Part shown: piece by piece, positions 1 to 29,031 of the stretch
Layout of the letters: every line of letters starts with the position of its first letter
How positions within the stretch are numbered: position 1 is the stretch's first letter
Source of the DNA: Escherichia coli
GTDB taxonomy: Bacteria > Pseudomonadota > Gammaproteobacteria > Enterobacterales > Enterobacteriaceae
DNA length: 64,000 nt
NCBI RefSeq assembly: GCF_003018255.1
Contig: NZ_CP027440.1
Reading direction: 5' to 3' (one strand)
The notes under the pieces: model-generated
What the model saw: only the letters and a program-made list of their open reading frames with translations
What the model was told of the DNA's origin: nothing
Database searches by the model: none
Program-made: the position numbers and the translations under genes

Positions 1-759
1 CACGCCGGCTTTTTCGGCAAATGCGTGCGTCGCCTGCTGGCAATCCTGAGTGGCGGACATTAATCCAGCCAGTAACTGGTGGGAGTAATCGGCGTGTTTA
101 TTTTCCAGCGCCAGAATCAGTTGCTTAATATGTGCCAGTGCCACCGGACCACATTTTTCCAGCTGCGCTAACTGGTTCGCCATCCAGCTTTCCACCTGTT
201 CTTTTTCTACCACTTCATCAATTAAATTCGCCACCTGGGCTTCCTGCGCCGTCAGGCGTTTACCCAGCATCAGCATCTGGCGACCGACCACCGGGCCAAC
301 CTGATTAAGCACGCGTTCAATGCCCATCCAGCCAGGCACCATGCCGAGCATCACTTCCGGGTTAGAGAATTTCGCGCCGGGGCGAGCGATACGAATATCG
401 CAGCACAAGGCAAGTTCAATACCGCCACCGATGGTATGACCGTTGAGATTCGCAACGGTTAATTGGGGTAAGTTGCGCAGGCGATTAAAAACCTCGTTAC
501 CGCGTTTAATCCATTTTCTGCCCATATCTAATGGCGAATAGGCCGACCACGATTTAATATCGCCGCCCGCACAAAAGAATTTATCGCCGGTTGCCGTTAA
601 TTCGACTAATCGTAATGTGGTGTCGTTTTCAATTTCATTTAAATAATGGTCGAGAGATTCGATCATTTCTTCATTAATAGCATGACATTTATCTTCACGG
701 TTCAATGTCAGGCGGCAAGAAGCCGCCGCTCTGCTGAACAGAACGGGTTGGTCACTCAT
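1..759 (-). CDS. enoyl-CoA hydratase/isomerase (crotonase-fold) family protein; 3' end lies beyond the window edge
   Basis: Open minus-strand frame starting at ATG 757-759 (SD-like aggaa upstream) and running off coordinate 1; my manual translation begins MSDQPVLFSRAAASCRLTLNREDKCHAINEEMI and contains a crotonase-like oxyanion-hole region (HTIGGGIELALCCDIRIA). Not in the ORF track because no stop lies in the window. Confidence 0.65.
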   Translation of the reverse strand, partial: MSDQPVLFSRAAASCRLTLNREDKCHAINEEMIESLDHYLNEIENDTTLRLVELTATGDKFFCAGGDIKSWSAYSPLDMGRKWIKRGNEVFNRLRNLPQLTVANLNGHTIGGGIELALCCDIRIARPGAKFSNPEVMLGMVPGWMGIERVLNQVGPVVGRQMLMLGKRLTAQEAQVANLIDEVVEKEQVESWMANQLAQLEKCGPVALAHIKQLILALENKHADYSHQLLAGLMSATQDCQQATHAFAEKAGV

Positions 760-768
760 GATTATTCC

Positions 769-1611
769 TTAGCAATAATGTGCGATGCGATCGACGCTAA
801 TATCCAGCGTGCTGTTAATATCTTTCTGCCACCAGTACGGTGAGAATATTTCCAGTTCAATAGCGCCATTAAATCCGGCGTTTTCAACCAGCCGACGAAT
901 TGACGGAATATTGATGACACCATCTCCCGGCATTCCACGGTCATTGACCAGATCGGTGGTCGGCACTAACCAGTCGGAAACATGAAACGCGAGGATGCGT
1001 TTTCCGGCACGCAGGATCTGACTGGCGAGATCCGGGTCCCACCAGACATGGTAGACATCTACCGCCACGCCGAGGCCAAATTCGCCATCGGGATCGAGTT
1101 CATCACACCAGTCCAGCGCCTGACGTAACGTGCACAGACAAGAACGATCGGCAGCAGTCATCGGGTGCAGTGGCTCCAGTGCAATTGGCACGCCGACCTC
1201 TTTCGAATGTGGCAGCAACTGGCGAATCCCTTGTTTCACCTGTTCCCGTGCTTCGTACAGATCTTTTGTTCCCATTGGCAGACCGCCAACCACCTGCATG
1301 TAACAGGCGGCATTTAGCACAGCGGCATCGTCCAGCGCCCGGCGGTTATCATCAATCGCCAGCTTGCGCTCCGCCAGCGTCGGTGCGGTGTAGTAGGTGC
1401 TACGGCACAAACCGGAAACGTTTATGTTACTGGCAGCAAGCTGGCGGGCGATTTGCTGGAGATCTTCACCCTGCAACTCCCTGCGCCAGGGGGCAATGGC
1501 GCCAATACCGCGTGCGGCGCAGGCATCAATAATGGCGGGTAGCGGCGTTTTATAGCCCAGTGTCGCGGTATTGATACTGAATAAATCCGGGCGTTGTAAC
1601 AGATCTCTCAT
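769..1611 (-). CDS. sugar phosphate isomerase/epimerase-like protein (xylose-isomerase-like TIM barrel)
   Basis: 280-aa ORF; family call from overall sequence character (my recognition, no search). Start ATG preceded by gagg SD; separated by about 10 bp from the SDR gene upstream and the crotonase gene downstream (operon). Confidence 0.6.
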   Translation of the reverse strand: MRDLLQRPDLFSINTATLGYKTPLPAIIDACAARGIGAIAPWRRELQGEDLQQIARQLAASNINVSGLCRSTYYTAPTLAERKLAIDDNRRALDDAAVLNAACYMQVVGGLPMGTKDLYEAREQVKQGIRQLLPHSKEVGVPIALEPLHPMTAADRSCLCTLRQALDWCDELDPDGEFGLGVAVDVYHVWWDPDLASQILRAGKRILAFHVSDWLVPTTDLVNDRGMPGDGVINIPSIRRLVENAGFNGAIELEIFSPYWWQKDINSTLDISVDRIAHYC

Positions 1612-1620
1612 GATTCAGCC

Positions 1621-2412
1621 TCAGAAGCGCGGCATACTTAAGCCGCCGTCGATGGCGACCGCCTGACCACAGGTGTAAATCAGTTTACCTTCCGCCATCG
1701 CGCGGACAGTGGAAGCAATATCAGCCGGATAACCCCAACGTCCCCACGGCACCAGACCTTTGGCAATCAGTTCGTCGTAATAGGCCGTTGCCGGAATAGT
1801 CATATCGGTTTTGATGAGACCAGGACGCACTTCATATACGCCAATTTGTTCATTACAAAGGCGAGCAGCAAATAGACGAGCAGCGGCAGAGACGGCAGTT
1901 TTGGCAATGGTATATTCGCCGCGATTCATCGCCAGCATGATGGCGTTGATGGAACTGACGAAAATAATCGAGCGGTGCGGCAGTTCTGCTTCCGGTTTCG
2001 GCTGTGCCAGTAAGCGCTTACTGAATGCCTGAGCGAGGAAGAACGGTGCGCGGGTGTTAATGGCAATATTTTGGTCGAAGCTGTCTGGTTCGAGGTCGAG
2101 AAGATCACCGCGTTTTTTCACTGAAATGCCTGCGTTGTTGAGCAGGCAGTCCAGACGTCCCCACTGGTTTTGCGCTGCGTCGAGCATCTCTTCATGCAGG
2201 GAGAGATCGCCCACATCAGCAGGGAAGCAAATCACTTCCACGCCTTCCGCCAGACATTCTTGTTGTGTGGCATGTAATTTTTCTACGCTATCCGCATCCG
2301 GACGATCATTAATCAGCAGATTAAATCCGCCACGCGCAAGCTCCAGCGCACAGCCCTTTCCAATACCACGAGCGGCTCCGGTAATCACGGCAACAGGAAG
2401 AGTGGATTTCAT
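1621..2412 (-). CDS. short-chain dehydrogenase/reductase (SDR) family oxidoreductase
   Basis: 263-aa ORF with N-terminal TGAARGIG cofactor motif and YTIAK catalytic Y-x3-K motif; first gene of a 3-gene minus-strand operon. Confidence 0.8.
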   Translation of the reverse strand: MKSTLPVAVITGAARGIGKGCALELARGGFNLLINDRPDADSVEKLHATQQECLAEGVEVICFPADVGDLSLHEEMLDAAQNQWGRLDCLLNNAGISVKKRGDLLDLEPDSFDQNIAINTRAPFFLAQAFSKRLLAQPKPEAELPHRSIIFVSSINAIMLAMNRGEYTIAKTAVSAAARLFAARLCNEQIGVYEVRPGLIKTDMTIPATAYYDELIAKGLVPWGRWGYPADIASTVRAMAEGKLIYTCGQAVAIDGGLSMPRF

Positions 2413-2624
2413 ACAATAGCTCTCTTTTTTTGAATTTTGTTTCCTTAGTGATGATTAGCTTGCGACTGGAGGGTAAAAAGATCAACCATCTAGTTGGTTG
2501 ATATGCGATGGCGATCACAGGACATTTGATAACCTGATGAAAGTACAAGTTTTTGCCCTTTTTTCTGAAGCTGAAATCAAATCAGGTTATGATAGTCACC
2601 ACGAAGAGGTCGTGGGGAAGCGTT

Positions 2625-3272
2625 ATGTATCTTGATACCAGCAACGTACAGAGCCTGAAAGAAAAGCTGCTGTTATGCGCGGTTAATGAATTTGCCGAAT
2701 ATGGTTACGAAGGGGCCAGAGTCGATAATATCGTCAAGGCCGCGGGGTGCAGTAAACAGACGGTTTATCACCACTTTGGTAATAAAGAAAATTTATTTAT
2801 CGAAGTACTGGAATATACCTGGAACGATATTCGACAAAAAGAAAAGGCCCTTGATTTCTCAGATCTTCCGCCACAGAAAGCCATTGAGAAAATAATCGAT
2901 TTTACATGGGATTATTATATTTCTAATCCCTGGTTTTTAAAAATTGTGCATAGTGAAAATCAAAGTAAGGGTGTGCATTATGCAAAGTCACAGCGTCTTT
3001 TAGAAATTAACCATGCGCACTTGCAGTTAATGGAATCCTTATTGGATGAAGGGAAGAAAAACAATATTTTTAAGCCAGATATCGACCCATTGCAGGTGAA
3101 TATTAATATTGCTGCGCTTGGGGGATATTATTTGATCAACCAGCATACGCTTGGTCTGGTTTATCACATCAGTATGGTTTCACCCCAGGCACTGGAAGCC
3201 AGACGTAAGGTCATCAAAGAGACAATCCTTAGCTGGCTTTTGGTTGACCCTTCATCTACCGCGCGCGAATAA
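2625..3272 (+). CDS. TetR/AcrR family transcriptional regulator
   Basis: ORF track frame 2553..3272; N-terminal HTH typical of TetR ([37 protein letters not shown]). I prefer ATG at 2625 (gggaag SD-like upstream) over the ORF-track start; divergent from the SDR operon. Confidence 0.75.
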
Positions 3273-3894
3273 AACTGCCATCCGGCTGGCGGGTAAACAG
3301 GACCTGTTGATTATTCCCCGTATCAATGGTTAAGCCCGTCACCACGCCGCTGGCGTTCTGGCGGATTTTCACCATCTGCCCGTTTTGCAAATTACTCAGT
3401 GGCTTATCCGCGCCTTCTACCTGCGCCATGGCATAGACATCGGTAGCGGGCAGTCCGTGGTCGCGGAACAGCTGCGCCATCGTTTTACCGGGTTCGACAC
3501 GATAGGAGCGCCATTGATTATCAATTCCGCTATCTGGCTGGAATGGTTGCGTATGGGTGGTTTGCGGCTGCTCTTCTGGCTGGCCTTCCTGTATTGGTTC
3601 TGGAGCGACCGGAGCCACCTGATCAGGATCATTTTGTGGCGTGACTAATTGCGCCCGCAGCTGTTCTTCTGTCGGTGGTTGTGATTGCGACTGAATATCT
3701 AACTGCGCTTCACGCGTCACCACCGGCGCGTTGGGCGTATCATCAGATGGAAGCAGAAATCCGACTACCAATACAATGGCGGCAATAATGATCCCCCGAC
3801 GATGCATCGGCGGCAGCGGGTCCATGAAGCGAAAATTGTCCGGCGCGTGCCAGACTTTCTCCAGGGTTGGTTTTAGTTCAAAGCGCCCGGGCAT
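3256..3894 (-). CDS. ytfB: cell-division protein YtfB (OapA/LysM-like domain)
   Basis: ORF 3256..3930; internal ATG at 3894 gives about 212 aa matching remembered YtfB length; membrane anchor plus Pro/Gln-rich linker plus C-terminal OapA-like domain. Confidence 0.8.
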
Positions 3895-4111
3895 GGTTTC
3901 CTCCTGCTCCGCGTCTTGTTCCTCAATCATAGCCTATGAATAAGCTAACGCTATGATGTCCGTGGTAAACCCGCCTTTATTATATTCATACGGGATATTG
4001 CTATTGTTTCTTTTTCCCCGGGATTTGTCATCATTCCCGCGACAAAGTTTTACCCAAAGAAGTGTGGCTGATATGCTGCCCGCTACTTTATACCCTAAGA
4101 AAGGAAATACG

Positions 4112-6497: not shown

Positions 6498-7160
6498 TCA
6501 CTCACCCGCCAGCGCGCGCGGGAATAGTACATTGTTTTCCAGACTGATGTGCTCCATCAGGTCATCAATCAGTTCATTAATGCCGTTATACATCGCTTTC
6601 CAGGTGGTGCAGGCTTCCGGCGGCGGTGTGACGTTATTGGTGGTGTGTTTGATCACTTCCAGCAGTTCGCCCGCTTCATCGTGCTCGCTTTCCATTACGC
6701 TGATTGGCCCCATTGCCTGGCTGCCCATGCCTTGTTTAATCATCGGGAAGAGAATTTGCTCTTCTTTCATCATGTGGCTGGAAAGCTCTTCATGCAGCAT
6801 AGTCAGGTATTTTGTCAGCCCTTTTGGCACACTTGGTTTGTCGGCGTGAACGCGCTCGACTTTAGTCGCTTGCAGGATCAGCTCCGGCAGTTGCTCGCGG
6901 TGGCGATCGTGGTAGCGCACGATGATATGGTCGATGATTTCTGCCAGCGGGGCGCTACGCCAGTCTTTCTCAATCGGTTGTTCAGCAAGCTTTGCCAGTT
7001 CGGCTTCAATGACGTCAACATCCAGTTCTTTACGTGCCGCCGCGCGCGCCAGCGTCTGCTTACCGCCACAGCAGTAATCCATATCATATTTACGAAACAG
7101 AGCCGAAGCGCGAGGAATAGAGAGCGCCAGTTCACCTAAAGGTTGGTCGCGATAAGCCAT
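6498..7160 (-). CDS. ytfE: iron-sulfur cluster repair di-iron protein YtfE (RIC)
   Basis: 220-aa ORF with hemerythrin-like His/Glu motifs; recognised as YtfE. Confidence 0.9.
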
Positions 7161-7186
7161 AGCTGATACCTCATTCTTAATAAGAT

Positions 7187-7209
7187 AAGATGCATTTTAA
7201 ATGCATCTT
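7187..7209 (-). promoter_or_regulatory. NsrR operator (11-1-11 palindrome) in the ytfE promoter
   Basis: AAGATGCATTT-T-AAATGCATCTT, perfect inverted repeat 27-49 bp upstream of the ytfE start codon; matches the NsrR binding motif as I remember it. Confidence 0.8.
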
Positions 7210-7267
7210 TATGGCAAATGCTATAACCCTTACGTAGCAGAGGCTTATTTAACTCACTGCCAGCGTG

Positions 7268-8242
7268 TCAACTTTCTGAGACAGATTCAGTTAAAGGTTT
7301 TTCTGGTTTTGCTCTGACTGCAATGACCACGCCAACCACTAACAGCGCGATACCGCTTAGCGTCATTAGCGGCGGCATTTGCTGGCGTAACAAAAAGGTG
7401 TACAGCAAGCCTGCCAGCGTTTCGAAAACAATCAGCGGCCCGAGAATCACTGTCGGTAATCGCTGGCTGGCGACGTTCCAGCAGAGTGCGCCAACCCATG
7501 AGCAAAGCACGGCTATCGCAACCATCAGACTAATAAACACCAGCGGACGGGGGCCAAAGGGTAGGGAGAAGCCCGGCGTTTGCGTATTCAGCCAGTAACA
7601 GGCGACGAGATAGCCGATGAGAGAAACCGGCAGCGTGACCAGCGCCTGCGCCGTCGCCCACATCATCGGATGTTTGTCGGGATTCTCCCGCAGCCAGCGG
7701 GCGTTGCGCAGGGCATACCATGCCCAGCAGACCACGGAAACTAACGCCAGCACGATGCCAGAGGTATAACGTGCCCAGTCAAAATCGGGGAGTCCGTGGT
7801 TTAACTCAGCAATATTCACACACGCCAGGCCGATGCCAATACAAACCAGTGCCGGGGCGAGTTTTCCCCACGCGAGTTTGCCGTCGCGCTGGCTATAAAG
7901 CAGATTGGCAAAAACGGGAATCACCACCGGCAGGGTGCCAATAATCATCGTGGAAACAGGCGCGCCAGTACGTTGAATGGCACTGGCAAGGCAGAAGTAA
8001 TAGATGAGGTTGCCCATCATGGTGAGCATCAAGGCGGTAAGCCAGTCGCGACGCGCCAACTGACGCAGACGCACGCGTCCCAGCCAGGCAATGGGCAGCG
8101 CAATTAACCCTAACGCCAGATAACGCCCCATCGACTGCAACATCGCCGGGTATTCCGGCACGATCAACGGCCCGACAAAAATAAGCCCCCACATCAACCC
8201 TGCTAACAGGGCGTACAGCACGCCGCTAATCATTACTGGCAT
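7268..8242 (-). CDS. ytfF: DMT-superfamily inner-membrane transporter YtfF
   Basis: 324-aa hydrophobic ORF; true start may be the internal ATG at 8233 (remembered length about 321 aa). Confidence 0.75.
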   Translation of the reverse strand: MPVMISGVLYALLAGLMWGLIFVGPLIVPEYPAMLQSMGRYLALGLIALPIAWLGRVRLRQLARRDWLTALMLTMMGNLIYYFCLASAIQRTGAPVSTMIIGTLPVVIPVFANLLYSQRDGKLAWGKLAPALVCIGIGLACVNIAELNHGLPDFDWARYTSGIVLALVSVVCWAWYALRNARWLRENPDKHPMMWATAQALVTLPVSLIGYLVACYWLNTQTPGFSLPFGPRPLVFISLMVAIAVLCSWVGALCWNVASQRLPTVILGPLIVFETLAGLLYTFLLRQQMPPLMTLSGIALLVVGVVIAVRAKPEKPLTESVSES

Positions 8243-8340
8243 CCATTGGTCTGTCAGAAGAAAGTTCAGGAAGCAGACATGATTGCTCCCGGCATCCCGT
8301 CATTATCAGAGAGGATGCGGGAGGATGCCACTTTAATTAA

Positions 8341-9201
8341 CTAGTTATTAACATTAAAAAGATGGCTTACGCTTTCGGCTAACGTTGTCGTTGGGCGGCC
8401 AATCAATTTGCTAAGCGTTTTGCTGTCATCAAACAGACCGCCTTTCGATGCGCCAACGTCAGAATCCGCCAGCATATCCGCCAGTCCATCAGGCAGTCCG
8501 ACGCTTTTCAGTGCCGCAGCGAAATCAGCTTCGCTCAGGTTTTGATAGGTAACCTGTTTGCCGCTCTGTTTGGTGAGTTCTGCCGCTAACTGTGTCAGCG
8601 TCCAGGCACTATCGCCCGCCAGTTCGTAAACCTTGCCTTCGTGACCGGCTTCGCTAATCACGCGTGCCGCAGCTACCGCATAATCAGCCCGCGTTGCTGA
8701 GGCAATTTTGCCATCGCCTGCGGCACCGATAAATACGCCGTGCTCCAGTGCTGCCGGGGCGCTGGCGAGGTAGTTTTCGGTGTACCAGCCGTTGCGCAGC
8801 AGGGTGTAAACGATGCCAGAATCAGCCAGCATTTTCTCCGTCTCGATGTGCTCATCGGCGAGGCCGAGCGGGGAGGAATCGGCATGTAGCAGGCTGGTAT
8901 AAGCGATAAATTTCACGCCGGCCGCCTTTGCGGCATTAATAACATTACGATGCTGCGGGGCACGTTGACCCACTTCGCTGGAAGAGATCAGCAGTAGTTT
9001 TTCCACTCCCTGAAGTGCAGATGTCAGTGCGGCTTCATCGCCGTAATCAGCCTGACGCACGGTAATGCCTTGTGCTGTCAGTGCCTGTGCTTTTGCCGGA
9101 TTACGAACGATAGCCACTATTTGGCTGGCAGGAACCGTTTTCATCAAGGATTCAATAACATAGTGACCAAGTTGGCCAGTGGCACCAGTAATAGCGATCA
9201 T
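8341..9201 (-). CDS. qorB: NAD(P)H:quinone oxidoreductase QorB (YtfG), NmrA-like
   Basis: 286-aa ORF starting MIAITGATGQLG (Rossmann motif). Confidence 0.85.
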   Translation of the reverse strand: MIAITGATGQLGHYVIESLMKTVPASQIVAIVRNPAKAQALTAQGITVRQADYGDEAALTSALQGVEKLLLISSSEVGQRAPQHRNVINAAKAAGVKFIAYTSLLHADSSPLGLADEHIETEKMLADSGIVYTLLRNGWYTENYLASAPAALEHGVFIGAAGDGKIASATRADYAVAAARVISEAGHEGKVYELAGDSAWTLTQLAAELTKQSGKQVTYQNLSEADFAAALKSVGLPDGLADMLADSDVGASKGGLFDDSKTLSKLIGRPTTTLAESVSHLFNVNN

Positions 9202-9249
9202 GGGAAGTCTCCATCGTTTTGTCTTGTGTTTAAATACGCTAACACTTAA

Positions 9250-9266
9250 ACTTACTTTTAGTAAGT
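9250..9266. promoter_or_regulatory. 7-3-7 inverted repeat in the qorB/ytfH divergent promoter region (candidate YtfH operator)
   Basis: ACTTACT-TTT-AGTAAGT perfect palindrome between the divergent qorB and ytfH starts. Confidence 0.4.
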
Positions 9267-9289
9267 ACGTACAAAAAGGTAAGTATGAG

Positions 9290-9670
9290 ATGAGTCAGGT
9301 TAGCCTGTCGCAACAACTGAAAGAGGGAAATCTCTTCGCTGAACAGTGTCCGTCGCGCGAGGTTTTGAAACACGTCACCAGCCGTTGGGGGGTGTTGATT
9401 CTGGTGGCGCTACGCGAAGGTACTCATCGCTTTAGCGACCTGCGGCGCAAAATCGGCGGGGTGAGTGAAAAGATGCTTGCGCAGTCGTTACAGGCGCTAG
9501 AGCAGGATGGTTTTCTTAACCGTATCGCGTATCCGGTAACGCCGCCGCATGTGGAATATAGCCTCACGCCGCTGGGCGAGCAGGTGAGCGAAAAGGTTGC
9601 TGCACTGGCGGACTGGATTGAGTTGAATTTGCCCGAGGTGTTGGCGGTGCGGGATGAACGTGCGGCGTAG
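9290..9670 (+). CDS. ytfH: HxlR-family transcriptional regulator YtfH
   Basis: ORF track frame 9179..9670; start MSQVSLSQQ at 9290 gives 126 aa; winged-helix HxlR-like. Confidence 0.8.
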   Translation: MSQVSLSQQLKEGNLFAEQCPSREVLKHVTSRWGVLILVALREGTHRFSDLRRKIGGVSEKMLAQSLQALEQDGFLNRIAYPVTPPHVEYSLTPLGEQVSEKVAALADWIELNLPEVLAVRDERAA

Positions 9671-9672
9671 CT

Positions 9673-9756
9673 GCAGGATGCGCGGCCTACGGTGTATGAC
9701 TTGTAGGGCGGATAAGATGCGTCATCATCGCATCCGCCAATAAATGCCGGATGCGG
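9673..9756. repeat. REP/BIME-type palindromic repeats between convergent ytfH and cpdB
   Basis: GTAGG(G/C)CGGATAAG...CGCATCCGCC and GCCGGATGCGG motifs typical of REP elements. Confidence 0.6.
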
Positions 9757-9787
9757 TTGATGATTTGCAGGCCGAAAAAGAAGTGTA

Positions 9788-11731
9788 TTACTTACTCAAA
9801 TCCACCTGATAAATCGCAAACCCGATATCATCGGTCGCGACTTTATTCATCGGATATTGCCCTTTCTCTTTAATAAACGCCGCGGCTTTATCTGATGGAG
9901 AGGTTTCGAAACGGATATCCAGTTTCTTATCGCCAGCTATTGGTGCTAAACGCCAGTTGTTATCTGCCGCCGGGTGAATTTCCCCCGCACGTTTCGACTC
10001 ATCAGCAATCCACGCTGCCAGCACCGAGCGGTTCTCATCCGGTGAAGCAAAAGCGATATGGCTGTCGCCCGTACCGGCAAATTTGCCGCCGTAAGCGCGA
10101 TAGTTATTGGTGGCAACGAGGAACATGGCGTTCGGATCAATCGGCTTGCCGTTAAAGGTCAGGTTCTTAATCCTTTCCGCATTGGCATTAACCATCTGGC
10201 ACTCGCCGTCATAACGGGCGGGCTGGGTAACATCAATCTGATAATTCACACCATCAATAACATCAAAGTTATAGGTGCGGAAACCATCCCAGTTGATGAG
10301 TGACTGTGGTTTCGTGCTGTTAGGATCAATCTGGTTAAACTGTCCGGCGGAGCACTCCAGCCACTCTTTCACCTCTTTACCGCTGGCTTTCACCACAATC
10401 AGCGTATTGGGGTAGAGATAAAGATCGGCGGCATTACGGAAGGTCAACTGGCCTTTTTCCACCTCCACATAGCTTGCCGGGTCATTTTTGCGACCACCAA
10501 CTTTAAACGGTGCGGCAGCTGAAAGCACTGGCAGTTTTGCCAGATCCGGATCGCCCTGAATGTAATGCTCGACATACGCTTTTTGCGCGTTGTTCACCAC
10601 CTGCACGGTCGGATCGTCCTGCACAAGCGCCAGATAGCTATACATATTGTCGGCAGATTTACCGATTGGCTTGCTGACGAACTGGCGTGTGGCATCGTGA
10701 TCGGCTTTGAGTGTTTCTACCAGCTTGCTGTCTTCCGCCGCGAGGGATTTTTTATTCGCGATGTCGTAAATCGGCCGTGCTTCCGCTTTCGCCTGCGTCA
10801 CCTGCCATTTACCGCTGTCATTACTGAGTTGTAAGTCGACCACACCAAGATGATCGCCCCACATGCCTGGCATTACCGCCGGAACACCATTCAGCGTGCC
10901 TTTCGCGATATCAGCCCCTTCGATATCAGCAAAATCTTTACCTGGGAAAACGGCGTGAGCATGGCCAAACATAATGGCGTTAACGCCCGGAATTTCACTG
11001 AGGTAATAAACTGAGTTTTCCGCCATCACTTTATACGGATCGGCAGACAGCCCGGAATGCGCCAGAACGACAACGACATCGGCACCTTTCTCGCGCATTT
11101 CAGGCACGTATTTGCGCACGGTTTCGGTAATATCATTCACCGTCACTTTCCCGGATAAATTAGCTTTATCCCAGCCCATGATTTGTGGCGGGACGACGCC
11201 AATATAACCAATCTTCAGCGTCTGTTTTTTTCCGTCTTTATCGACCACTTCGGTGTCTTTAATTAAATACGGTGTAAACATTGGCTGTTTGGTTCTGGCG
11301 TCAATGACGTTGGCATTTACATAAGGGAATTTCGCTCCCGCCAGCGCATTTTTCAGATAATCCAGACCGTAGTTAAACTCGTGGTTGCCAAGCGTGCCGA
11401 CGGTATAGTCCAGCGTATTTAATGCCTTATAGACCGGGTGAATATCACCTGCTTTTAAACCTTTCGCCGACATGTAATCTGCAAGCGGACTCCCCTGAAT
11501 CAAATCGCCGTTATCGACCAGTACGCTGTTTTTCACTTCATTGCGGGCATCGTTAATCAGGCTTGCGGTACGTACCAGTCCGAATTTTTCCGTGGCGGTG
11601 TCTTTGTAATAATCGAAATCCATCATGTTGCTATGCAGATCAGTGGTTTCCATGATACGCAGATCGACCGTCGCTGCATTCACACTGGCGGCAATCAGCG
11701 TGGCCAGGAGCGTTGCGCTAAACTTAATCAT
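9788..11731 (-). CDS. cpdB: 2',3'-cyclic-nucleotide 2'-phosphodiesterase/3'-nucleotidase CpdB (periplasmic)
   Basis: ORF 9788..11740; second ATG (11731) has aagga SD at good spacing and gives 647 aa; signal peptide plus metallophosphatase motifs. Confidence 0.9.
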
Positions 11732-11920
11732 CAGGGACATCCTTTTATCATCGGGAATACGAAAGAAAAGGGAGAATAAACGTCTTACTTATAGAACAGT
11801 GAAGAATGCCACAATTTTACGCTTTGAAAATGATGACACTATCACAGTTGGCGCATTCATTAACGATAGGGTATAAGTAAAACAATAAGTTAACACCGCT
11901 CACAGAGACGAGGTGGAGAA

Positions 11921-12661
11921 ATGTTAGATCAAGTATGCCAGCTTGCACGGAATGCAGGCGATGCCATTATGCAGGTCTACGACGGGACGAAACCGATGGA
12001 CGTCGTCAGCAAAGCGGACAATTCTCCGGTAACGGCAGCGGATATTGCCGCACACACCGTTATCATGGACGGTTTACGTACGCTGACACCGGATATTCCG
12101 GTGCTTTCTGAAGAAGATCCTCCCGGTTGGGAAGTCCGCCAGCACTGGCAGCGTTACTGGCTGGTAGACCCACTGGATGGTACTAAAGAGTTTATTAAAC
12201 GTAATGGCGAATTCACCGTTAACATTGCGCTCATCGACCACGGCAAACCGATTTTAGGTGTGGTGTATGCGCCGGTAATGAACGTAATGTACAGCGCGGC
12301 AGAAGGCAAAGCGTGGAAAGAAGAGTGCGGCGTGCGCAAGCAGATTCAGGTCCGTGATGCGCGCCCGCCACTGGTCGTTATTAGCCGATCCCATGCAGAT
12401 GCAGAGCTGAAAGAGTATCTGCAACAGCTTGGCGAACATCAGACCACGTCCATCGGCTCTTCGCTGAAATTCTGCCTGGTGGCGGAAGGGCAGGCGCAGC
12501 TGTACCCGCGCTTCGGACCAACGAATATTTGGGACACCGCCGCTGGTCATGCCGTGGCTGTAGCTGCCGGAGCGCACGTTCACGACTGGCAGGGTAAACC
12601 GCTGGATTACACTCCGCGCGAGTCGTTCCTGAATCCGGGGTTCAGAGTATCTATTTATTAA
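11921..12661 (+). CDS. cysQ: 3'(2'),5'-bisphosphate nucleotidase CysQ
   Basis: 246-aa ORF with inositol-monophosphatase-family motifs ([12 protein letters not shown]). Confidence 0.9.
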
Positions 12662-13208
12662 TTAATTTATGCAGCAGGTCCATCACTTGCTGCACCTCTT
12701 CCTGAGTAAGCGCCCCGTCTTTGGCCCATTGCACGCGACCGTCTTTATCCAGCACCACTACAGCGGAACTTTCTTCATCCAGCTGCCAGGCACCGCGCGC
12801 GACGCCATTGCTATCGACAATAAACTGCGACCAGGGATAAAGCTTTTTATTACTCTCCAGACTGCTGCGCACAAACATGCCGGAACCCGGAATTGCGTCG
12901 TCGGTGTTAACAATGGTGGTGGTCTGGTAACGATCGTGCGGTAACTTTGCTGATTTAATCGCTTCAATCAGCGTCGCGTTTTTCTCTTTTGCAGAGGTGC
13001 GACCAGCAATATGTTGCAGTACTCGCACTTTTCCCACTAGCTGCGCGCTGTTCCAGGTTTTGTAGCTAAACTGATCTTTATCAAGCACCAACTCGCCACG
13101 ATCGGTAATGCCAATCGGCGGCACTCGCTGACCGGTTTCGAACTGATGTGCGGAAGCCATCATCGGCAACAGCAGGCAGGTGAGTGCCAGAATCTTGCGT
13201 AGGGTCAT
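12651..13208 (-). CDS. ytfJ: periplasmic protein YtfJ (DUF1107-type, signal peptide)
   Basis: 185-aa ORF with N-terminal signal peptide; 3' end overlaps the cysQ 3' end by 11 bp (convergent). Confidence 0.8.
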
Positions 13209-13532
13209 GGTGTTTCCTTCTTATGATATGCAGGTGATCCGACCACTTGGGTCTGAGTTTTAATCATATGTGCTATTTATCGAATTTCCCGCAAGTGTGA
13301 TGCCAGTTTGCGGTCAAGCGCACAAATCATATGAAAAATGAATGCTTATACTGAAGACGGCGCTTCGGTAAAAAGATAATTCTGAATAATTGTAACCTTT
13401 AGGTAAAAAAAGTTATACGCGGTGGAAACATTGCCCGGATAGTCTATAGTCACTAAGCATTAAAATTTGCGCCTCATAATAGTTGGGCCGATTGTGGCAC
13501 CGCACAGGCGTAATACTCAGCAGGAGATAACA

Positions 13533-13739
13533 ATGAAAATTTTCCAACGGTACAACCCACTTCAGGTGGCGAAGTACGTAAAGATCCTGTTCCGTGGACG
13601 GTTATACATCAAGGACGTTGGCGCTTTTGAATTTGATAAGGGTAAGATTCTTATCCCAAAAGTGAAGGATAAGCTGCATTTGTCAGTGATGTCCGAAGTT
13701 AACCGTCAGGTTATGCGTCTGCAAACAGAGATGGCTTAA
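13533..13739 (+). CDS. ytfK: small protein YtfK (DUF1107)
   Basis: ORF track frame 13467..13739; start [22 protein letters not shown] at 13533 (aggaga SD upstream) gives 68 aa. Confidence 0.8.
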
Positions 13740-13762
13740 CCAAAGTGCTATGCAGTAATAAG

Positions 13763-13796
13763 ACGGCTCCTGATTCAGGAGCCGTTGATGTTTCTG
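13763..13796 (+). terminator. intrinsic terminator after ytfK
   Basis: ACGGCTCC-tgattc-AGGAGCCGT hairpin followed by T-rich tract. Confidence 0.55.
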
Positions 13797-13800
13797 GGGG

Positions 13801-15144
13801 TTACGCGACGCTTTCTTCTTTATCTTTAGCGTCAGGCAATTTTGGCGAAAGGGCGGTGGCCTTGCTGTCGATTCGGGTCACCAGCAGCTGGTCGATGCGG
13901 TAGTTATCGATATCCACCACTTCAAATTTGTAGCCGGCGAATTTCACCGAATCGGTGCGTTTCGGGATCTTACGCAGCATAAACATCATAAAGCCGCCGA
14001 TGGTTTCGTAGTTGCCCGACTGCGGGAACTCGTCAATATCCAGCACGCGCATGACGTCGTCAATAGGCGTGCCGCCGTCTATCAGCCATGAGTTCTCATC
14101 ACGGGCGACAATTTGCTCTTCCAGCCCCTGACCGACCAGATCGCCCATCAGCGTGGTCATCACGTCGTTGAGGGTGATGATCCCCACTACCAGCGCGTAC
14201 TCGTTCATGATCACCGCGAAGTCTTCACCTGCGGTTTTAAAACTTTCCAACGCCTCTGAAAGGGTTAACGTATCCGGCACAATCAGCGTATTGCGAATTT
14301 GTACGCCGCTGTTCAGTGCCAGGCTTTGGTTAGCCAGCACGCGGTTCAGCAGGTCTTTAGAATCGACATAGCCGATGATGTGGTCAATATCTTCATTACA
14401 GACGAGAAACTTAGAGTGCGGATGTTCCGCCACCTTATTCTTCAGACTTTGCTCATCTTCGTGGAGATCAAACCAAATCACGTTTTCACGCGGTGTCATT
14501 GAAGACGGAACGGTACGGGATTCCAGCTCAAAGACGTTTTCAATCAGCTCGTGTTCCTGTTTACGTAACACGCCCGCCAGCGCACCGGCTTCCACTACCG
14601 CGTAGATGTCATCAGAAGTGATATCATCTTTACGTACCATTGGCAGTTTGAAAATACGGAAGATTATGTTCGCCAGTCCGTTGAAGAACCACACCAGCGG
14701 GGTGCAAACGTACAGGCAGAAGCGCATCGGGTTGATGATACGCAAAGCCACCGCTTCTGGCGCAATCATACCGATGCGTTTCGGGGTTAAATCCGCAAAC
14801 AGGATAAACATGCCAGTCACTAACGAGAAAGAGAGAATAAAGCTCAGTTGCTCAGAGAGTTCTGCCGACATATAGCGGGAGAACAGGCTGTGAAAAGCTG
14901 GAGAAAATGCCGCATCACCGACGATACCGCCGAGAATCGCCACTGCGTTCAGACCGATCTGGACCACGGTAAAGAACATGCCGGGATTTTCCTGCATATT
15001 CAGAACGCGTTGGGCATTTATATTGCCTTCATCAGCCAGCAGTTTAAGTTTGATTTTGCGTGAGGCGGCAAGCGAGATCTCGGACATCGAGAAGAACGCA
15101 CTTACAGCGATCAAACAGAGTATGACTAAAATACTGTTTAACAT
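13801..15144 (-). CDS. ytfL: UPF0053 inner-membrane protein YtfL (DUF21 + CBS pair + CorC/HlyC transporter-associated domain)
   Basis: 447-aa ORF, recognised as YtfL. Confidence 0.85.
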   Translation of the reverse strand: MLNSILVILCLIAVSAFFSMSEISLAASRKIKLKLLADEGNINAQRVLNMQENPGMFFTVVQIGLNAVAILGGIVGDAAFSPAFHSLFSRYMSAELSEQLSFILSFSLVTGMFILFADLTPKRIGMIAPEAVALRIINPMRFCLYVCTPLVWFFNGLANIIFRIFKLPMVRKDDITSDDIYAVVEAGALAGVLRKQEHELIENVFELESRTVPSSMTPRENVIWFDLHEDEQSLKNKVAEHPHSKFLVCNEDIDHIIGYVDSKDLLNRVLANQSLALNSGVQIRNTLIVPDTLTLSEALESFKTAGEDFAVIMNEYALVVGIITLNDVMTTLMGDLVGQGLEEQIVARDENSWLIDGGTPIDDVMRVLDIDEFPQSGNYETIGGFMMFMLRKIPKRTDSVKFAGYKFEVVDIDNYRIDQLLVTRIDSKATALSPKLPDAKDKEESVA

Positions 15145-28032: not shown

Positions 28033-29031
28033 TTACGCGTCCGGGAACTCACGGATAAAGCGTTCGACATCTTCAACCATATGGTCGTTGCCGACAAAGA
28101 ATGAACGGCGCTGGTGCAGGGTTTCCGGGATGATATCCAGAATACGCTCTTTGCCATCGCTCGCTTTACCGCCTGCTTGTTCCGCCAGGAATGCCATCGG
28201 GTTGCACTCATACAGTAAACGCAGTTTACCGTCCGGGTGGCTGGCGGTGCTTGGGTAGAGATAAATACCGCCTTTCAGCAGGTTACGGTGGAAATCCGCG
28301 ACCAGTGAACCGATATAACGTGAGGTATACGGGCGGTTGGTGGATTTATCTTCTTCCTGGCAGAATTTAATGTACTTCTTCACCCCGTTCGGAAACTTAA
28401 TGTAGTTTCCTTCGTTGATGGAGTAGGTTTTGCCTTTCTCCGGGAAGCGCATCCGTTCCTGGCACAGGCAGAAAACACCCAGCGAAGGATCATAAGTAAA
28501 GGCGTGAACACCGCATCCGGTGGTGTAAACCAGCATAGTAGAGGAGCCGTATACCACGTAACCTGCCGCAACCTGTTTGTTACCAGGCTGGAGGAAATCT
28601 TCTTCCGTTACCGGCGTGCCAACAGGCGTAACGCGGCGGTAGATGGAGAAAATGGTACCGACAGAGACGTTAACATCGATGTTGGACGAGCCATCCAGTG
28701 GGTCCATCAGCACCACGTATTTTGCGTGTTCACAGCCTTCAAAGACGACAATCTCATCTTCTTCTTCAGAGGCAATGCCCGCAACGATATCGCGTGCTTT
28801 CAGTGCGGCTTTCAGTTTCTCATTAGCGAACAGGTCGAGTTTCTGCTGAACCTCGCCCTGCACGTTCTCAGCACCGCTGGCACCCAGGATATCAACCAGT
28901 CCTGCTTTGTTGATATCGCGATGGATAATCTTGGCGCCCAGTTTTATTGCCGACAGCAAAGCAGTGAGCTCACCGGTAGCATGAGAAAACTCGTGCTGCT
29001 TTTCGACAATAAATTCACCTAACGTTTTCAT
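28033..29031 (-). CDS. fbp: fructose-1,6-bisphosphatase class 1
   Basis: ORF 28033..29094; start [12 protein letters not shown] at 29031 gives 332 aa. Confidence 0.9.

Follow-up and report, generated by a model that had tools for sequence, protein, structure and literature searches.

Genes at the locus and their distribution

The window, which is the whole 64,000-nucleotide stretch of Escherichia coli DNA that was analysed, carries close to its left end an intergenic region of 212 bp (2413-2624, 39.6% G+C). This region separates an operon on the minus strand, here called the SDR operon, from the TetR-family gene ytfA on the plus strand, and positions 1-4000 of the window are 99.2% identical to E. 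coli strain 536. The first gene of the divergent operon is the SDR gene (1621-2412, minus strand), which encodes a short-chain dehydrogenase/reductase, falls in PRK12745 and is annotated as '3-ketoacyl-ACP reductase'. It is followed on the same strand by an AP_endonuc_2 TIM-barrel gene (769-1611) and by a crotonase gene that runs off the window at position 1. The complete operon comprises six genes, the remainder lying past the left edge of the window (in the reference locus L001 the operon occupies 6993-14412). The genes outside the window encode a family-I CoA-transferase, which is FadX-like with a match below the family cut-off, a 690-aa FAD_binding_2 flavoprotein of fumarate-reductase-like type and an ACS-type MFS transporter of the D-galactonate-transporter subfamily. 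From its gene content the operon looks like one whose products take up an organic or sugar acid, activate it with CoA and reduce or dehydrate it. A literature search on this combination of genes gave nothing relevant.

The full-length form of ytfA (2625-3272, plus strand) encodes 215 amino acids and is annotated in RefSeq as TetR/AcrR. Two Pfam domains are found in 2625-3269, TetR_N (E 1.9e-14) and TetR_C_29 (E 4.2e-30). In a survey ytfA was listed as a TetR-family regulator of some E. coli strains only, with no function, target or site assigned (PMC6790063). The searched literature contained no characterisation of ytfA, its motif or TetR_C_29, and no published binding, footprint, transcription-start or expression data for the ytfA/SDR locus. 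The closest solved structure is 3npi, an unnamed TetR protein, and no DNA complex of a close YtfA relative was found. At their 3' ends, ytfA (plus strand) and ytfB (minus strand) show a convergent overlap of 17 bp (3256-3272).

Of 5426 complete E. coli genomes, 3133 (~58%), among them strains 536 and UTI89, have the intergenic region, in single copy, and it is found in Salmonella too. Two allele classes with a mutual identity of ~85% can be distinguished, one matching the window at >=95% in 1180 genomes and the other at 80-90% in 1952. This divergence is unusually deep within one species, and both classes retain the operator, the CRP site and the -10 boxes described below. One locus (L007) contains a truncated ytfA remnant that has neither the N-terminal part nor the operator; the K-12 ytfA is a remnant of the same kind.

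The intergenic palindrome and its association with the TetR gene

The first-pass annotation of this DNA had described a palindrome with perfect 8-bp arms at 2481-2502, between the SDR operon and the TetR gene, and these coordinates are confirmed. The 22-bp sequence, palindrome 1, reads ATCAACCA-tctagt-TGGTTGAT in an 8-6-8 register, and when the spacer is counted 10 of the 11 pairs match. Dinucleotide shuffling of the 212-bp region produced a perfect hairpin-type repeat with arms of at least 8 bp and a spacer of at most 12 in 4.8% of cases. Palindrome 1 is not compelling by within-window chance alone (P ~0.05); it is placed above chance by its conservation across genomes and not by within-window statistics.

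Conservation was followed in 16 orthologous loci, defined by a TetR gene divergent from the same SDR operon. The set comprises five Escherichia lineages, Citrobacter, Klebsiella spallanzanii, Salmonella, Lelliottia, Leminorella and Entomohabitans, and in addition five loci, mostly metagenomic, with a TetR identity of 59-67%. The gene order of the SDR operon beside the TetR gene is unchanged in all Enterobacterales orthologues. A search for the palindrome in orthologous loci had been proposed earlier as a check, and the core CAACCAnnTrGTTGGTT was found in all 16, down to 59% TetR identity. Among these loci the 18-bp site at 2481-2498 varies only at two spacer bases, at 2492 (A/G) and at one base in one locus, while the DNA that flanks the core is diverged or rearranged. 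The Entomohabitans region is longer (423 bp), and its palindrome adjoins the SDR gene, with 359 bp separating it from the TetR ATG. About 210 extra bases are located there between the CRP site and the ytfA promoter (L008, 3690-3940), and the operator is thereby set apart from the TetR gene.

The same motif, with the consensus ATCAACCAnnTGGTTGAT, flanks homologues of the TetR protein with 34-40% identity in Alphaproteobacteria (Belnapia, Oceanibaculum, Ferrovibrio, Tistrella, a Xanthobacteraceae genome and others). Palindromes of the ATCAACCAACTGGTTGAT type, including the perfect 18-mer itself, closely border the TetR gene at these loci, on its upstream side, its downstream side or both. Seven matches with at most two mismatches were obtained in 102 kb, where 0.03 were expected, and every one is located within 250 bp of the TetR gene. 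By comparison, the 446 kb surrounding 59 unrelated TetR genes gave no match to the motif. In Oceanibaculum (L014) the motif covers the -10 of a TTGACA-17-TAACAT promoter of the downstream gene. No synteny with the SDR operon was detected beside the alphaproteobacterial homologues (BLASTP, 1e-5), and in the two loci checked (L013 and L014) the gene next to TetR encodes an ABC-transporter permease. The regulator is thus separable from the operon as the partner of the motif.

The recognition helix, K44 Q45 x V47 Y48 H49 H50 x G52 N53 K54 E55, is invariant between E. coli and the alphaproteobacterial homologues. With a matrix made from alphaproteobacterial sites only, 2481-2498 ranked at the top of the 64-kb window (21.5 bits vs 13.5 for the next unrelated match) and the equivalent site ranked first in every enterobacterial locus, a test that is not fully independent since the alphaproteobacterial sites had been found with an E. 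coli-derived pattern; the positional enrichment is independent of it. The TetR gene is the sole element common to all motif-bearing loci in the entero- and alphaproteobacterial genomes, which is the strongest argument short of experiment for the predicted binding of YtfA to palindrome 1. The earlier proposal of palindrome 1 as a candidate TetR operator is therefore supported, because the motif follows this TetR subfamily in 16 of 16 loci and into the Alphaproteobacteria and is absent near unrelated TetR genes. Scanning the 64-kb window and the 28-kb locus with the matrix revealed no second operator. The next-best match in the window is TTCAACCATATGGTCGTT at 28072-28089 (13.5 bits), probably a chance similarity.

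An imperfect 18-bp palindrome with an 8-2-8 layout, ATCAACCA-TC-TAGTTGGT at 2481-2498, describes the conserved unit best, and this was taken as the primary form of the predicted YtfA-dimer site. In the same layout the family consensus is ATCAACCA-nn-TGGTTGAT. Six of the eight pairs match in the window, where an A is found at 2492 and all alphaproteobacterial sites have a G; on the sequence, this A weakens the 8-2-8 reading in the window and favours 8-6-8, in which it falls in the spacer. The 22-bp form corresponds to the 18-bp core followed by TGAT (2499-2502), the end of a right half-site that is 'slipped' by 4 bp.

A less likely but viable reading is that the operator consists of the full 22-bp 8-6-8 palindrome, or of two YtfA dimers bound in overlapping 8-2-8 registers 4 bp apart (2481-2498 and 2485-2502). 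The 8-bp arms at a spacing of 6 are perfect in E. coli and in six further lineages (E. whittamii, Citrobacter, Lelliottia, Leminorella, Entomohabitans and L087), and TG at 2499-2500 is conserved beyond the 18-mer in many lineages. The TGAT following TGGTTGrT also recurs in unrelated lineages (Belnapia, Oceanibaculum, L018, Tistrella and L087), and the second register, 2485-2502, scores 17.4 bits with the alphaproteobacterial matrix. Against this, the arms are imperfect in E. albertii, Klebsiella, Salmonella and L083-L086, where the terminal GAT is lost and the 18-mer is kept, and the cleanest alphaproteobacterial sites (L010 and the downstream site of L020) are 8-2-8 only. A 4-bp shift in half-site spacing is also hard to square with a single dimer. 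The site proposed earlier stands, and the 8-6-8 register given for it is the less likely one: several lineages no longer have the GAT that ends its right arm, and the evolutionarily conserved unit is 8-2-8.

A composite operator would combine the two forms, with two dimers on different helix faces or with one left half-site and two alternative right half-sites, and is here regarded as a minority possibility. If it were true, TGGTTGrT-TGAT would be a device of the TetR_C_29 subfamily conserved from Alpha- to Gammaproteobacteria, and it might tune cooperativity against the CRP-dependent activation of an organic-acid/CoA pathway. In QacR-type regulation two TetR-family dimers bind one extended palindrome, the 28-bp IR1. 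The YtfA element resembles QacR-IR1 in being an extended palindrome with overlapping pseudo-palindromic sub-sites, as the registers offset by 4 bp can be read, but it is only 22 bp long and half of the orthologues are without the second register.

The putative SDR-operon promoter and its proposed regulation

A strict scan of 2350-2700 for the sigma-70 consensus gave no promoter. Promoters were instead assigned by a weighted scan together with cross-species anchoring on the operator. The putative -35 hexamer of the SDR operon is TTGATC (2480-2485, minus strand), inside the left arm of the operator; this sequence is found in 14 of the 16 orthologues and is replaced by TTGATA and TTGTTC in the other two. 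A weak -10 hexamer, CAAGCT (2457-2462, minus strand), is predicted at a fixed distance of 17 bp from the -35. The variants found among the 16 loci are CAAGCT, CATTTT, CATCTT, CATCGT, CATGTT and TAAGTT; the A at position 2 and the T at position 6 are present in 16/16, while the 17-bp spacer is free to vary. Judged from the position of the -10 only, transcription would start at 2448-2452 (~2450, minus strand) and give a leader of ~38 nt. In the 59%-identical metagenomic orthologue L087 an extra operator copy, ACCAACCATTCGGTTGGT, was observed at 2826-2843 over the putative SDR-operon start, in addition to the operator adjacent to the CRP site.

A CRP-like site, which had gone unmentioned in the first-pass annotation, abuts palindrome 1 at 2504-2519 (centre 2511.5). 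It reads TGCGAtggcgaTCACA (TGCGA-tggcga-TCACA), agrees with TGTGA-N6-TCACA at 9 of 10 core positions and is the only match with at most one mismatch in the 64-kb window. All 16 orthologues have such a site with 8-10 of the 10 positions, its centre 29.5-30.5 bp from the start of the operator, and the spacer bases vary among them. Relative to the putative transcription start the CRP site is centred at -61.5 (or -60.5) and the operator extends from -31 to -48, or to -52 in the 22-bp form. The weak -10 and the negative strict scan fit an activator-dependent promoter, but they also count against the proposed model.

The palindrome had earlier been assigned to a promoter region shared by the two divergent units. 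This holds for the SDR-operon promoter, where the palindrome lies over the conserved putative -35, but not for the TetR promoter, which is ~100 bp away and >300 bp away in Entomohabitans. A class II CRP geometry (-41.5) was rejected, as it needs a -10 at 2482-2477 (ATCTTT) and none is conserved there. An FNR site was likewise rejected, the half-sites of TTGAT-N4-ATCAA being in the opposite order. Two Dam sites (GATC) are present in the region, one at 2480-2483 in the -35 and operator left arm, which is kept in 14 of 16 orthologues, and one at 2513-2516 inside the CRP site.

Taken together, palindrome 1 is interpreted with a probability of about 0.8 as the operator of YtfA, whose gene begins 123 bp to the right, in the predicted CRP-activated promoter of the divergent SDR operon. 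What the analysis shows is the sequence, how well it is conserved, that it occurs together with the regulator and that the elements keep a fixed spacing; YtfA binding, the transcription start, the direction of regulation and the ligand are inferred. A YtfA dimer would bind the 18-bp site at 2481-2498 and so cover the -35, with its left half-site, and the gap up to the CRP site at about -61.5. Because the operator fills the gap between the -35 and the CRP site, bound YtfA would be expected to block the contacts of sigma-70 and alpha-CTD and in this way to override CRP activation. A ligand would release YtfA and allow cAMP-CRP-dependent transcription from about 2450. The relatives that align with YtfA over both the ligand domain and the HTH include Bacillus FadR and KstR2. 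These two regulators respond to acyl-CoA, and for this reason the most likely inducer of YtfA is a CoA thioester, probably one made by the operon's own CoA-transferase.

The proposed arrangement shares features with several known systems. As in systems of the TetR-tetO and AcrR-acrAB type, the gene of an HTH regulator is divergent from its target operon and a short intergenic palindrome overlaps a core promoter element of the target, in the present case the putative -35. Unlike in those systems, the YtfA operator is not shared with the promoter of the regulator (~100 bp away), and it is combined with a CRP-like site in a putative class I position. The likeness to class I promoters of the lac P1 type lies in a CRP site near -61.5 (here counted from the putative start), a weak core promoter and a specific repressor that would add substrate control above catabolite control; the difference is that the predicted YtfA site is located between the CRP site and the -35 and not over the start.

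With this model YtfA gains a precise candidate operator and a promoter at which YtfA repression would act on top of CRP activation. The family motif ATCAACCAnnTGGTTGAT can be used for regulon prediction in other genomes, and the inducer and the substrate of the six-gene operon of E. coli and Salmonella become experimentally approachable. General concepts of gene regulation are unchanged by what appears to be an ordinary, well-supported regulatory site.

The putative ytfA promoter and other readings of the inverted repeats

The putative -10 hexamer of ytfA is TATGAT (2588-2593, plus strand), with a start near 2600. All orthologues, Entomohabitans included, have a hexamer of the form TATGAT, TATAGT or TATAAT ~31 nt upstream of the ytfA start codon. 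The top matrix score on the plus strand was obtained for another candidate, TTGATA (2498)-17-GACATT (2521), which was rejected as a conserved ytfA promoter because E. albertii has a disrupted -10 and neither Klebsiella nor Salmonella retains it. A hairpin at 2596-2618 in the ytfA leader was also discarded, as it is not conserved. Elsewhere in the intergenic region the alphaproteobacterial matrix gave no operator-like site of >=3 bits. Since the separate ytfA promoter has no operator-like sequence, autoregulation is not indicated, and ytfA is probably not autoregulated in E. coli. The alphaproteobacterial homologues differ from E. coli ytfA in this respect and have the motif at their own promoter.

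The second inverted pair that had been noted earlier closer to the TetR start (2531-2538 and 2581-2588) is present, and its arms in fact extend to 10 bp. In this pair, IR2, the left arm ATAACCTGAT (2529-2538) and the right arm ATCAGGTTAT (2581-2590) are perfect and 42 bp apart. Only ATAAC is conserved in the left arm. The right arm runs through the spacer and 3 nt into the ytfA -10; the conserved part of this arm, GTTAT, belongs to the -10 region.

It is improbable that IR2 serves YtfA as a further operator or acts as a structural element in the autoregulation of ytfA, and by within-window chance alone the pair is not compelling either. A perfect inverted pair of at least 10 bp was obtained in just 1.6% of dinucleotide shuffles of the 212-bp region (at least 8 bp in 22%), its right arm overlaps the ytfA -10 region, and autoregulation would find a parallel in the operators at the promoters of the alphaproteobacterial homologues. 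The pair is perfect only in the E. coli lineage of the window and in E. whittamii, however, and decays elsewhere: of the 10 pairs, 8 are left in E. coli E69 and in Citrobacter, 7 in E. albertii and in L005 (SCPM-O-B-8794 Escherichia), 5 in Klebsiella and 1 in Salmonella, with the changes on either arm uncompensated. In addition IR2 is unlike the operator motif, its arms are too far apart for a TetR-type site, and a start near 2600 would put both of them upstream of the ytfA mRNA. IR2 is probably fortuitous and without a role, and the suggestion that it might be an operator is not sustained.

A 7-bp inverted pair, ATTTGAT/ATCAAAT (2524-2530 and 2576-2582), is interleaved with IR2 and survives in E. 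albertii and L005, two lineages with a broken IR2. TGAT and ATCA words abound in the region and probably inflate the number of chance repeats.

It is equally doubtful that palindrome 1 is bound by another protein, for example by the paralogous TetR regulator RutR, and that YtfA acts elsewhere. The RutR box TTGACCAnnTGGTCAA, bound by a TetR-family protein, is palindromic over 16 bp around a 2-bp centre and has ACCAnnTGGT as its core, and some of the RutR sites detected by ChIP match at just 7-9 of 14 positions (PMC2475637). Its geometry (7-2-7/8-2-8) is that of the 8-2-8 reading of the YtfA site and the core is the same, but direct comparison with 2482-2497 gave agreement at 8 of 14 positions only. 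In every orthologue the outer bases of the half-sites depart systematically from those of the RutR box, with TCAAC/GTTGA at the YtfA site vs TTGAC/GTCAA for RutR. YtfA resembles RutR in the HTH region only (E ~1e-9, far below the family cut-off). The motif moreover follows YtfA-type genes into Alphaproteobacteria where the neighbours are others, and the YtfA recognition helix is invariant together with it; both observations argue for YtfA as the binding protein.

Least probable of all is that palindrome 1 represents a minus-strand RNA hairpin or intrinsic terminator, or a chance palindrome. A terminator scan did pick out the stem on the minus strand, with CTTTTT after it, folding of the hairpin gave -9 kcal/mol (z = -3.4), and the shuffles alone would leave room for chance. 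However, the minus strand has no gene ending upstream of the palindrome, the stem is a weak one (3 G-C pairs of 8), the T-run is missing in Entomohabitans, Lelliottia and L087, and the arms are conserved as sequence without compensatory change. Chance is excluded, since the site persists down to 59% protein identity and occurs in a second bacterial class.
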